A DNA stretch of 58,717 nucleotides, filler included, from Circinaria calcarea (GCA_051942165.1; 4 parts of 4 records of this genome joined end to end with filler, not necessarily neighbours in it); one strand, 5' to 3'; counted from the whole stretch's first letter, positions 45,155-55,218 are shown. Program-made: numbers and translations. Notes: a model not told the origin generated them from the letters alone.

Positions 45155-48096
45155 ATGGAACTATCGAATATCAAAAACCGTCTACGGAGTCTTAAAAGCT
45201 CCGTAAATGGTTCAAATGTAAAAACATTCGTCGCTGAAGGTTGTTTGACAGAAATTTACAACATTGATGAAGTATCACGAGCGCTTGCAGAGCCCATCTT
45301 CAACATTCCCAGTCACAAGCTAGAGAGCACTGCAAGAATTGTTCTGAATGAGGCTCCGAAAATATTTGCAATCCTGTTAGAGCTCCACTGCGAACAAGTA
45401 TTTGTCAGGTTTGTAGAAAGCGATGTTCTTGACTCGAGGTTGCCGCTTGATGAGGCAATACTAAGAAATATCATACCCGAGGCCGCGCAGAGGTTTGAAT
45501 GTCTTCAGTGGGAGTACCTTGCTTATCAATTTAAAAGAGGTCAATATCACAAGAAACTCTCTCAGAAGCAGGTCTTGCCTTATCTACAGCAAGAAAACAT
45601 TGGAGGTGGTGGGTATTCCACTGTCTATAGAGTTCTGATACCCCCGCAGCATCAGACTTTCATTGGTGATGCAAGTTCTAAGGTTAGGCATATACCATTA
45701 AGTAGTTTTTTCTGGCTAATTATGATTTTCAGGGGATAGAACTCATCCGCAAAGAGCTCCGGTCATTCGGTCAGGATGAGAAGGCGGAGGCCGAGTTGCT
45801 CTTCCTGTTAGGGAGTCTGAAGCACCCAAATATTGTCGAACTCTTAGCATCTTACACCCAAAACGGCATCTCGAACTTGCTTTTCCATCCAGCTGCTATG
45901 GATCTACATGAGTTCCTACTCCAGTCTGATCGACCAGTTGGCTTTATGGAAAGATTCACCTTCCATCAAGCGATGCACGGGATTGCAGATGGCCTGAGTT
46001 ATCTCCATAACTTCCGTGCGAGACCTGCCACTTCGCGAACGGGGTGTGAACCTCTCATGCATGGCTATCATCATGATATCAAGCCTCGAAATATCCTGGT
46101 TCGTGGCTCGGCTTTCATACTAGCTGACTTTGGTACTTCTAAGCTCAAAGATATAGACAAAGACACTAAGACAATGTGGAAAAATACTACCTTTGAGTAT
46201 GGGGCCCCAGAATGCAGGGATCCAGAGACATGGGTTGCTGGCACGGTCGGAAGAGCTCTGGACATCTGGTCTCTTGCGTGCGTCTTTTCGGAGATTGTAA
46301 CATATGCCCTGCATGGTTCGAAAGGTATTCTAGAGTTTCGAAGGCAGAGATTAAAGGAACACCTAAATGGTGGCATGACGCAATGTTTTCATGACGGCGA
46401 GAACCTTGATTCGGACGTTGGCATACATCTTGATGACTTGGAAGAGAACTCTTCGTCTGATCCAATACGAAAGCTCCTCTACCTTATTCGAACTATGTTT
46501 TCAACCGAGCCAATCAGTCGGCCAAAGGCTAATGAAGTCGAAAAAACTCTTTCTCATATAGCTGTTGAGGCGCTCTTAGATGCCGCTATCGAGTCTGTAC
46601 AGCATATGATAAATACTATCGAAGGAGCCACGGAAAAAAACCTCTACACTACGCAACTCCAAGTCGAAATGAATCGTATTTTGGCCTGGTCTGGTGCTTT
46701 AGGACTTAAATCTATATACAGGAGCCACAAACCGCATGACGAACAGGTATACGCTTTCTTTCCCGAGATCTGTGGGACTTTGAACTCTCTGTTCAAGGAT
46801 CTGAACACTGAATATGACTTCGAAAGTGTTGAAGATAGTCACGACTTCGTCCTGAGTAAGCTTCAGCATGCTAACCATGAGCTTTGCAAACGTCTGTCTC
46901 GGGAATGCAGAATATCTGCAGATGATACTTTTCGAATAATCACCGCCAATATGCCAGACCTCCGATCTCTACAGAGCATAGCCAAGCTTGACCTGGTATC
47001 AACGCAGCTGTACGATAATGCTAGTACTGGTACAGCTACCAAGTATATGACCCTTGTGTTAGAGAAACACGCGAAAGAAAAAGTTGTAAGTCATCGCATT
47101 GAGGCGTCACTTCTCCGTAAGGATCCTTCCACGGTGGATTTACTAGCATCTCCACCACTATGGCTCTACAGTTATGGCTACCGTGCTGGCGAAGAAAGAA
47201 AGACAGTCGTAGAGTTCATGCCATATTGGCAGAAGCAACACGACACGAACAGCGAGCAGTTCGAGGAAGTGATAGAAACAATGTTTTCTCGGGTTCAAGA
47301 ACTTGTAGAAGTGCTTAAACACAAGCCGAAACCTCCAGCTTTCCGGATCCTAGACTGCTTAGGAGCATTCCATGACGACCAGCGTCAAAACTTTGGAATT
47401 GTCTATGGGTATCCATCCGAAGATACTGCACCGGTCCGGCTGAAAAAACTTCTCCGCTACCGCAAAAGCTACAACTTCTACCCGGACTTAAGTCAAAAAC
47501 TTGTTCTTGCGAAGACTCTTATTGCTTGCGTTCAAAGCTTCCATACTTCCGGATGGCTTCACAAGAACATATCGTCGCTTAACATCCTGTTCTTCCAGAA
47601 TTCCATAAGTACCATAGCCGAGCTTGATTTGGCGAAGCCTTACATGGTGGGTTTTGACCACAGCCGTAAAAACGGAAAGGGTGAATACAGCCAGGGTGCT
47701 AGGTATGGTCAAGATCCAAGCTCTAGTCTAGCATTTAGACAAGCCTGCCAAGAATACCTCCACCCTCGCTATCGCCTTGGGATGATAACCGACATAAGAG
47801 ACTCTGCTTTCACAAGATCTTATGACTACTATGCGTTAGGACTTCTCTTGCTTGAGATCGGTACGTGGACCCCTCTGAACAAGATCTACGAAAAGTACCA
47901 AACGCACCCACCGGATGAGTTGCGGGAAGAGTACATCAAGTACTGTGACGAGCATTTAGGGAGAATAATGGGTCCAATATTCCAAAGCATAACAAGAACA
48001 TGTCTGCTGTATGATGGGGGAGAGAATGATGACATCACAGGGCAGCTCACGTTTCAAGCTGAAGTTGTTGATAAGCTTAACAAATGTGTATTCTAA
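45155..48096 (+). CDS. Ser/Thr kinase - HeLo-like segment - pseudokinase fusion protein (~963 aa, intron 45683-45732)
   Basis: Kinase motifs IGGGGYSTVY, IRKEL, HPNIV, HHDIKPRNILV, LADFG, YGAPE and DIWSL. HeLo-like LQVEMNRILAWSGALGL. C-terminal degenerate kinase WLHKNISSLNILFF, PYMVGFDHSR, YLHPRY and DYYALGLLLLEIG. Confidence 0.85.
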
Positions 48097-48934
48097 AACA
48101 CAATATATCAAACTGATATGCTACCCTCAGAACAAACTTTACTGATATAAAGAACTACCCAAATTTGCTTCTCTGCTAGAAAAACATCCTTTCGCTACCT
48201 AGCTTCCATTATCTTGGCCGGGGATCGAAATCTGAAGCTCTTGATCCTGCAACAAACTCAGCCTCTTACAAATTAGACATACCTTCGGAACATTCGTTCA
48301 CTTCTATAGTGATACATACCCTTGTAAGCCGCTTAGGGATAATCAGCGTGTACGAGTCATCAATATGCTTTGATCAACAGCGCCGTTAGCTAGAACTTTC
48401 TCTGCAGACAAGACAAGACCGAGCAGTGGGGGTTATACATTTATCTGGAAATTCCCGGGCCCAAAAAGCGTTTTCAGAAGCTCGAGCAGCTTCGCACCAT
48501 CAATGTAGCGCGCGTCAAGGGTCTGGACCGTGTTCGGCATGTTATTCTGGCTCCCAAGTCACTACCGGCGCTTAGTTATAGATAAGCGAGACTGATGTTT
48601 TGCAGAAACTGAAGAAAAAGAAGCTGGCCTTGATCTTCTGCTGAACCCTTTGTTGGTGGTCTCGAAGTCCGTCTTGCAGGTGGAATATATCCTGGATAGC
48701 AGTCCCATAAGGTAGCCTCGTGCCCCGCTTGAGGCTCCAGCTTCTTATGCACTGTCGCTAAAAACAAATTCCTGGTCTAAGCCGAAAACGACAGTTTCTT
48801 ATCTTTGCACACATCGAAACGCCAACACATATAAATTGCATGTATTTCTAGTTACGCGAGCTCGCTTTTCTATTATGGATTGATATATTACTGGGCCTAA
48901 TCGGGTCTACAGGGTGAACTCTAACAGGTAGGAG

Positions 48935-54100: not shown

Positions 54101-55218
54101 TGGAGACGGCGAACTATGCAGTGTTACTGTCTGGTGCCAAGTCGAGATTGGCGCTCAAGAGCAAGGCAAAAGAGCTAGGTATATGGCCATCTAGTCTCGA
54201 CAATGATGACGATTTCGACGAGTTGGCTAAAAGATTAAAACTGGTTGATACCGCCATTCAGGATCTGCAAAACAGGGGTGAAGACTATAAAGCAGAAGAC
54301 ATGTTGCTGGCTACTCTGTTGGTAAGAGGTAACGTTTACGGAATGGGCAGTCGTGATGTCATGATGAATTCCCGGAAAATTGGGTTGCTATACTTGAAGG
54401 TGCATAAGTACCCGTTTGCACAGAACTACAATCGCACAGCGTTAGGTTTAGGGAAAATGTTGTTGAATGAAAGGCATCCGGAAACGCTAGCTTTGATGCA
54501 TAGCGTAGCCTACGTCCATCAAGTATTCGGCGAATATCGAGAAGCTAAGCGCTTCTACAGCCAAGCTATGCAAGGTCGACGACAGGTGCTTGGAATGGAG
54601 GATAAGATGACGATGGAAACGGTCGATAGTCTTGTAATGGTTCTTATCCCGCTTGGGCAGTTGGCTGATGCAGAAGAATGGGCTGCGTGGAATCTTAAGG
54701 CAAGGGAGAAGATAAATGGGAAGGACCATGAAGACACTCTAGCCAGTATAAACACCCTAACGAGCGTCCTACGTGCACAAGGGAAATACGATCAAGCTGA
54801 GGAACTTAACCGGAGAGCACTCGAAACGGATATGAAAAAGCTTGGGGCCCAACACCGGATCACGCTGAAAGCATCAATCAATCGAGTCGATAATCTAGCT
54901 TGTCGAAAAGAATACCAAGCTGCGGAAGAGCTAAATCGTCAAGTTTTTCAAGATATGGAAAGGGTATTCGGAGAGTACGCCCCGGATACACTGGAAAGCC
55001 TTGCTACTTTGGGCAAAATGCTCTACAGACAGGGGAAGTTTGCTGAGGCAGAGGACAGGTACCAACAATTAGCTAAGGCATCCCAGTGGTCCCTAAGTAC
55101 GAATGACCCTATGAGGACAGGCAGACAACAAGTACTTCAACGGATCCAGGAAAGGGCCGCTGATCCATGGGACCATCTGAGTAAGGGAAAGGATGGAGAA
55201 ACTTCGGAGGATAATTGA
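51194..55218 (+). CDS. Protein kinase - SEL1-like repeat - TPR (kinesin-light-chain-type) array protein
   Basis: Introns 51795-51848, 52372-52422 and 52490-52542 join the two track ORFs in frame. Kinase motifs LGDGAT, LAYKR, HGDVKPKNIL, ADFG, YAPE and DMFSFG. SEL1-like AAFQLAFCYSIGFGV. Many LGxxHxxTL...QGKYxxAE repeats. The start may be at 51254. Confidence 0.85.

Follow-up and report, generated by a model that had tools for sequence, protein, structure and literature searches.

We describe a cluster of three adjoining genes in Circinaria calcarea and show that it is one conserved, co-inherited cluster of Pezizomycotina. The DNA analysed, called the window here, is the full joined stretch of 58,717 nt (GCA_051942165.1), and the three genes, called the trio, occupy its positions 45155-55218. 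NCBI proteins identical to products of the window bear the name of this species, a lichen fungus. Gene 1 encodes a protein kinase followed by a helical bundle and a pseudokinase, gene 2 a CorA-like membrane protein, and gene 3 a protein kinase joined to a TPR array. Since homologues of the three genes are neighbours in many other fungi, the trio is probably one signalling unit. We put at about one half the probability that this unit works without a nucleotide-binding oligomerization domain (NOD) and ends at the membrane, with gene 3 as sensor, gene 1 as relay and gene 2 as effector, possibly for regulated cell death.

The linkage of the three genes is firmly established by a survey of metagenome contigs. 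An alignment of eight gene 2 sequences was pattern-scanned over JGI metagenome contigs, which gave 80 loci with flanks of up to 10 kb. These loci fell into 35 groups at >= 90% nucleotide identity, and 21 groups were informative, i.e., had at least 8 kb of total flank. Partners were sought by tblastn, for which the products of genes 1 and 3 served as queries. A gene 1-like match needed E <= 1e-25 and a coverage of at least 50% of the N-domain and likewise of the kinase, and a gene 3-like match E <= 1e-20 with at least 60% of the kinase covered. An earlier note on this DNA, made from the sequence alone, had proposed that the three genes form a module and had named homologues that are never linked elsewhere as its refutation. 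Instead, both partners were present in one locus in 12 of the 21 informative groups, with all three genes within a span of 6.6-14.6 kb. A single partner was found in 3/21 groups (in one of the three, the contig ends at the partner) and none in 6/21. The other 14 groups have less than 4.1 kb of flank and no partner. As an internal control, the six groups in which gene 2 is solitary contributed 74.5 kb of flank without a partner by the same criteria.

The linked genes are divergent in both sequence and arrangement. Proteins of these clusters are 21-46% identical to those of the window, and at least six orders or orientations of the trio occur, the window's own counted. An open reading frame (ORF) comparison of 15 representative loci found no fourth conserved gene, as the trio genes alone were common to them. 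The smaller ORF families in this comparison were, by their coordinates, antisense ORFs within the trio genes or upstream gene 2 exons. Trees built for each of the three genes from 13 clusters correlate with one another (Mantel r 0.74, 0.65 and 0.58, all p <= 4e-4) and have the sister pairs L002/L007, L031/L076 and L055/L064 in common. One contig carries two paralogous trios (groups 4 and 31; L023/L071 and L080/L076), with the gene 2 copies about 26 kb apart, and as many as five distinct trio groups occur in one assembly series. Because several clusters occur in one assembly series and two on the same contig, whole trios appear to have been duplicated as units. At L031 (5-2141 and 11554-14622), L040 and L041, two gene 3-like kinase-TPR genes flank the gene 2 homologue. 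Adjacency was also found in a second named genome, that of Gallowayella concinna, in which the deposited protein P0393 (1344 aa) has a gene 2-like part running into a gene 3-like part. Residues 400-1256 of P0393 match the deposited gene 3 product P0125 (E 6e-73), and the last gene 2 exon is absent at the joint. In our reading, P0393 is no true fusion but a product of gene calling that ran two tandem genes together.

Closely related haplotypes differ by the presence or absence of gene 1, gene 3 or both. From locus position 9894 to the right, over the remainder of gene 2, L016 and L026 match L019 at 97-98%. Left of 9894, an AT-rich block of about 10 kb (31-35% GC, no ORF of >= 130 aa) replaces the start of gene 2 and both partners. 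The gene 3 copy of L035 is missing from L034, which is otherwise 99.4% identical to L035. That of L044 is likewise missing from L045, and L005 and L018 have just 2.5 kb in common. In six haplotypes of one cluster, single-nucleotide polymorphism (SNP) sites were counted per kb. The TPR part of gene 3 has 14.5 and its kinase 14.3, the parts of gene 1 have 17-27, and sequence outside the genes has 17.5-23. The hypervariability of the TPR array for which the earlier note had suggested looking was thus not seen in the single haplotype set tested.

Gene 1 has the kinase, HeLo-like bundle and pseudokinase first proposed for it, per Pfam, an AlphaFold2 model, Foldseek and motif alignment. It has 121 homologues at E <= 0.001, and most of the 120 listed span 90-100% of the query. 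Its N-domain is kept in the cluster homologues (tblastn coverage 0.84-0.99). The kinase that follows retains the beta3 Lys in 15/15 clusters, the Asp of HxD in 15/15, DFG in 15/15 and APE in 14/15, and is of the active type as judged by these motifs. Gene 1's N-domain and kinase (residues 15-504) also align to the N-terminus of a Diaporthe NACHT protein, P0115, with 30% identity over 509 columns. P0115 continues into NPHP3_N and NACHT domains after its kinase part. Protein kinase is among the N-terminal domain types listed for fungal NOD-like receptors (NLRs) in the available text of PMC4986451 and PMC12258605.

The C-terminal half of gene 1 (aa 446-963) was modelled with AlphaFold2 (mean pLDDT 83.8 for the whole model, pTM 0.86), and in this model a kinase fold comes after a helical bundle. 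A Foldseek search of the PDB with this half ranked full-length mouse MLKL (4btf) first, with an E-value of 1.2e-6 over 500 columns that is merely about twofold ahead of the next rows. Lower rows were mostly single kinase domains, with alignments of about 310-410 columns, and a two-domain pseudokinase-kinase chain, 4oli, reached 514 columns. The TM-scores were low (0.36-0.43), and the packing of the domains therefore differs. VIA-align recovered the kinase fold at model residues 181-518 (Z ~21) and barely tested the bundle (model residues 1-180). The gene 1 family profile run against PDB sequences was swamped by matches to ordinary kinases and is uninformative on the bundle. DUF7580 matched the window protein at aa 739-818 (E 4.5e-4, below cut-off). 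In a Pfam scan of 40 family members, namely 39 gene 1 homologues plus the C-terminal half of the window protein, Pkinase was found in 39 and DUF7580 in 35. Within the C-terminal domain, the position of the catalytic (HRD) Asp holds Asp in 0/14 clusters and the position of the DFG Asp is Gly in 14/14; this domain is therefore a conserved pseudokinase. HeLo-like domains in kinase and pseudokinase proteins, and cell-death clusters of two or three genes in fungi, are both noted in the available portions of a 2025 review (PMC12881547).

Gene 2 was re-spliced using splice signals, alignment to the homologues P0250 and P0251, and the family alignment. The result has seven exons and a coding sequence of 1419 nt, which encodes 473 aa with no internal stop codon. 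The deposited gene 2 model, P0245 (271 aa), omits conserved exons and ends early. An in-frame intron of 48 nt lies at 49838-49791. A full HMMER search with the 210-aa exon retrieved 479 proteins at E <= 1e-3, and a word-based search for longer relatives of gene 2 gave no scoring match. The call of a CorA-like membrane protein, made in the earlier note, holds by a profile match and by the fold of a homologue. Pfam CorA matches 6 of the 16 family members tested at E <= 0.1, with one match passing the gathering cut-off, and the gene 2 family profile matches the TM1-loop-TM2 region (TM, transmembrane helix) of Thermotoga CorA with E 1e-4. In the protein atlas, the nearest clusters are named "CorA-like transporter domain-containing protein", and their commonest phylum is Ascomycota.

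The fold was examined in a model of the homologue P0251 (pLDDT 83.3), which has the alpha/beta cytosolic domain, stalk helix and two C-terminal TM helices of CorA. Foldseek matched this model to CorA along the whole chain (E 1.3e-11, about 430 columns). VIA-align gave Z 18.3 to CorA, Z 17.3 to a CorA soluble domain (root-mean-square deviation 3.7 over 242 residues) and Z 11-17 to CmaX, ZntB and Mrs2, with ranks 1-37 all being CorA, CmaX, ZntB or Mrs2. The GMN motif at the end of TM1 is the signature of Mg2+-conducting CorA, Mrs2 and Alr1 proteins. It is kept in none of the six clusters alignable there, where the window has SAN and the others STG, SSG, SSN or PAN. Relatives of the gene 2 cytosolic domain were sought in 185,579 prokaryote genomes, and none of the 32 pattern matches was confirmed by tblastn. 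A W-x-x-Y motif at the gene 2 N-terminus was considered for a docking role and dropped, with exon 1 being unalignable in most clusters.

Gene 3 is a kinase-TPR protein without a NOD, as first suggested and as borne out by Pfam. The TPR_12 match amounts to 248.6 bits over 7 stretches and the TPR_10 match to 196.2 bits over 10 stretches, above the Pfam cut-off. No NACHT or NB-ARC domain was found, with Pfam at E <= 1 giving Pkinase and TPR families alone. The kinase keeps the Asp of H(G/R)D in 12/13 clusters, DxG in 13/13 and the beta3 Lys in 11/13, motifs by which it is assigned to the active type. In the sister clusters L076 and L031, the gene 3 kinase lacks the beta3 Lys (Asn or Gly in its place) and has DLG for DFG, and these two kinases may be inactive or atypical. 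The SEL1 element of the earlier description stands in part: Pfam gave no Sel1 match at E <= 1, and the linker carries a single Sel1-like motif whose GFG core is present in 12/13 clusters. For the TPR part, only two close relatives were retrieved (41-42% identity).

Splicing and matches to deposited proteins agree with the earlier description of three intact genes filling 45155-55218 (coordinates in Table 1). The gene 1 product has 963 aa and is identical to the deposited P0005. The gene 3 product equals P0125 (1296 aa) apart from its start. The deposited gene 3 start is the codon right after an in-frame stop, and its first residue is not encoded by ATG (51170-51196). All three genes have short, fungal-type introns. 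Three sequencing runs were listed in a look for RNA, none of them an RNA source of this DNA; one contains about a quarter of the words sampled and is recorded as probable DNA. Genes 2 and 3 are divergent, and the interval between them measures 373 bp if gene 3 starts at the ATG at 51194 and 433 bp if it starts at the one at 51254, compared with the ~370-430 bp given earlier. Genes 1 and 2 converge, as had been described, with their stop codons 838 bp apart.

Table 1. Positions of the trio genes, their parts and the nearby 5S rRNA gene in the window (1-based; aa, amino acids).
Feature	Position	Strand	Details
Gene 1	45155-48096	+	exons 45155-45682 and 45733-48096 (stop included); ATG 45155; stop 48094-48096
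Gene 1 intron	45683-45732	+	splice sites read
Gene 1 N-domain, aa 1-140	45155-45574	+	no Pfam family
Gene 1 active-type kinase domain, aa 145-445	45587-46539, intron included	+	Pfam Pkinase E 5.7e-23
Gene 1 helical bundle, HeLo/4HB-like, aa 446-625	46540-47079	+	AlphaFold2 helices
Gene 1 pseudokinase domain, aa 626-963 (Pfam DUF7580)	47080-48093	+	kinase fold, motif loss
Gene 2, CorA-like membrane protein, 473 aa	48935-50820	-	ATG 50820; stop 48937-48935
Gene 2 exons	50820-50640, 50497-50458, 50388-50168, 50116-49839, 49790-49485, 49430-49236, 49135-48938	-	
Gene 2 C-terminal stalk end and two transmembrane helices	48938-49430	-	family profile vs CorA TM region
Gene 3, kinase-TPR protein	51194-55218	+	first ATG 51194; second ATG 51254
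Gene 3 exons	to 51794, 51849-52371, 52423-52489, 52543-55215	+	
Gene 3 introns	51795-51848, 52372-52422, 52490-52542	+	splice sites read
Gene 3 protein kinase domain	51347-52371	+	Pfam Pkinase E 9.7e-22
Gene 3 single Sel1-like motif, linker, aa 444-469	52657-52734	+	GFG core
Gene 3 TPR array, TPR_10/TPR_12 type	53116-55089	+	TPR_12 E 3.7e-75; TPR_10 E 2.5e-59
5S rRNA	44163-44282	-	73.4 bits

The surroundings of the trio were less well predicted. The 5S gene reported beside the trio is present. An AT-rich stretch (GC 0.35-0.38) at 43001-45000, which contains this 5S gene, lies directly upstream of the trio, and 4 kb further up there is a short zf-CCHC (zinc-knuckle) ORF (40332-40580, +, E 3.9e-4) that may be a retroelement relic. 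The window had been described as an accessory contig, which it is not, because the remaining 45 kb bears housekeeping genes. These are ATG11, CENP-H, arabinonolactone oxidase, DnaJ, GRASP55/65 and a DUF3591 protein, which we take to be TAF1-like. The DNA downstream of the trio had been described as decayed, and two adjoining ORFs there (56921-57585, -) match families of S-adenosylmethionine (SAM)-dependent methyltransferases (best E 1.4e-7). This ORF pair is probably one gene with split exons. A second immune-type gene, a HET-domain ORF of 691 aa (Pfam E 2.8e-22), lies at 1870-3942 (-), 41 kb from the trio.

From these data we infer an order of action for the trio that would involve phosphorylation, the opening of a channel and a cell-death or immune outcome. 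Gene 3 would be the input, with its TPR array either restraining its kinase or bringing the kinase to a target. Gene 1 would be the relay, in which an active kinase of its own is fused to a switch made of an MLKL-like bundle plus pseudokinase. Gene 2, having the CorA fold and lacking the GMN magnesium filter, would be the membrane effector, or a co-effector together with the gene 1 bundle. We assume that gene 2 is pentameric like CorA. Its opening would alter ion flux and could, at the extreme, kill the cell.

Several of our observations weigh against a NOD-less signalling unit of this kind. HeLo and MLKL bundles act via a free N-terminal helix, and the bundle of gene 1 is internal (aa 446-625), behind the N-domain and the active kinase. 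The CorA-fold protein is therefore given at least an equal chance of being the part that acts on the membrane. We would like to note that Pfam HeLo (PF14479) matches the window protein at aa 455-558 with 16.0-17.5 bits (E 0.004-0.011), under the gathering cut-off of 23.2 bits, and matches at E <= 0.01 were found in just 12/40 members of the gene 1 family (best 6.9e-6). For the CorA fold, the chain modelled was the homologue P0251 and not the window protein; P0251 and the large exon of gene 2 are 44% identical. With regard to gene 3, its TPR units are not near-identical (no tandem repeat in the DNA and no internal repeat in the protein at E <= 1e-3), and the array has no excess of diversity in the six haplotypes of one cluster. 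The trio locus sits in a housekeeping region, and shared descent alone would also be expected to yield correlated gene trees. Finally, gene 2 is solitary in 6/21 informative groups and has a single partner in 3/21, so that members of this family function outside the trio as well.

The same observations bear on a serious rival, which we consider somewhat unlikely. Under this alternative, the trio is a conserved non-immune unit of ion homeostasis or stress signalling, in which a CorA-type transporter is adjusted by two kinases according to a metabolic or metal signal, without any cell death. A transporter role would agree with the CorA/ZntB/Mrs2 fold, with the solitary gene 2 groups and with a position among housekeeping genes, although GMN is absent in all six clusters alignable there. 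Likewise, a non-immune role would agree with the absence of a NOD domain and of TPR hypervariability in the set tested, but a NACHT protein has the gene 1 kinase module at its N-terminus as well, and we know of no role of an MLKL-like bundle plus pseudokinase in ion homeostasis. Two paralogous trios on one contig, together with presence and absence of the partners, would be unusual for a core homeostatic unit.

Quite improbable, in our estimation, is a mobile or selfish cassette of the toxin-antidote or killer type, in which the linkage would stem from joint transmission and not from a benefit to the host. Such a cassette would account for several paralogous trios in one assembly series, two of them on one contig, for the shuffled gene order and for haplotypes without partners. 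It would also fit the AT-rich block adjoining the truncated gene 2 in L016 and L026 and the AT-rich stretch with the 5S gene just upstream of the trio in the window. Nevertheless, no transposase, integrase or other fourth gene is common to the 15 representative loci, and the deep divergence (21-46% identity), along with conserved catalytic motifs, fits long-term purifying selection on all three genes. Chance adjacency of unrelated neighbours in this genome, for which one could cite the abundance of kinase and TPR genes in fungal genomes and the 6/21 informative gene 2 groups without either partner, is effectively excluded by the presence of both partners within 6.6-14.6 kb in 12/21 groups despite rearranged order, by the absence of a partner match in 74.5 kb around the solitary paralogues and by the correlation of the three gene trees.

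The proposed signalling unit resembles several known systems in part. Similar to RIPK3-MLKL of vertebrates (and the MLKLs of plants), it has an active kinase upstream of a switch in which a bundle precedes a pseudokinase with degraded motifs, these being HGK and GFE in MLKL and HKN and GFD in the window. In contrast to RIPK3-MLKL, the active kinase of the trio is fused in cis, N-terminal to a bundle that is thus internal, and the trio adds a second kinase with a TPR arm as well as a CorA-type membrane protein. Sequence identity between MLKL and the C-terminal half of gene 1 is just 14%. Fungal NLR/HeLo two-gene clusters of the NWD2/HET-S and HELLP types likewise place a repeat-bearing sensor gene beside a gene with a HeLo-type bundle. 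Unlike in those clusters, NACHT and NB-ARC domains are absent from the sensor of the trio, the bundle is internal, and signalling would use kinases instead of amyloid templating. No shared amyloid motif was noticed, although no search aimed at one was made.

Further comparisons concern the candidate membrane-acting part. The divalent-cation channels CorA, ZntB and Mrs2 share the whole-chain fold (Z 17-18 to CorA and 11-12 to Mrs2, for the P0251 model). Gene 2 differs from them in its missing GMN, in a sequence identity of about 10% and in its linkage to two kinases. In type III CRISPR systems of bacteria, a CorA-family membrane protein activated by a nucleotide signal is a defence output. The analogy, drawn in the earlier note, lies in a CorA-fold membrane protein as the output of a defence pathway; these effectors are bacterial, and no relative of the gene 2 cytosolic domain was confirmed in the 185,579 prokaryote genomes. 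The fungal gasdermin clusters described in the available text of PMC12881547 also set a NOD-less enzyme, fused to TPR, WD40 or ANK repeats, beside a membrane-targeting executioner. In the trio, however, the enzyme is a kinase and not a protease, and the candidate effectors are MLKL-like and CorA-like and not gasdermin.

A more specific form of the signalling reading, which we think unlikely, is that Pezizomycotina possess a NOD-less, kinase-driven death pathway in which a TPR sensor kinase activates an MLKL-like kinase-pseudokinase protein, and this then opens a GMN-less, CorA-fold pentamer serving as a lethal ion channel. If true, it would parallel in function both vertebrate RIPK3-MLKL necroptosis and the CorA effectors of bacterial type III CRISPR. 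To our knowledge, it would also be the first CorA-family immune effector in a eukaryote.

The earlier note had known of no characterised fungal system with this three-gene composition, and none was found in the literature searched, which also contained no description of the trio, of DUF7580, of PF26616 or of three homologue locus tags. No CorA-like partner of such genes was found in this literature, and CorA was not met as a protein name in the portions of fungal cell-death and NLR papers available. Fungal regulated cell death is known mainly from clusters of an NLR plus a HeLo-type protein and of a protease plus a gasdermin. HeLo-like domains in kinase and pseudokinase proteins are noted without any named pathway in the accessible part of PMC12881547. 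The trio supplies a defined candidate pathway, with a kinase as sensor, an MLKL-like protein as relay and a membrane protein of the CorA fold, which is conserved across deep divergence and therefore directly testable by co-expression and kinase-dead mutants. If the proposed signalling unit is real, fungi would have a kinase-driven form of necroptosis-like signalling that needs no NOD receptor, and a function could be assigned to the GMN-less CorA-like proteins of fungi, a large and unstudied family.

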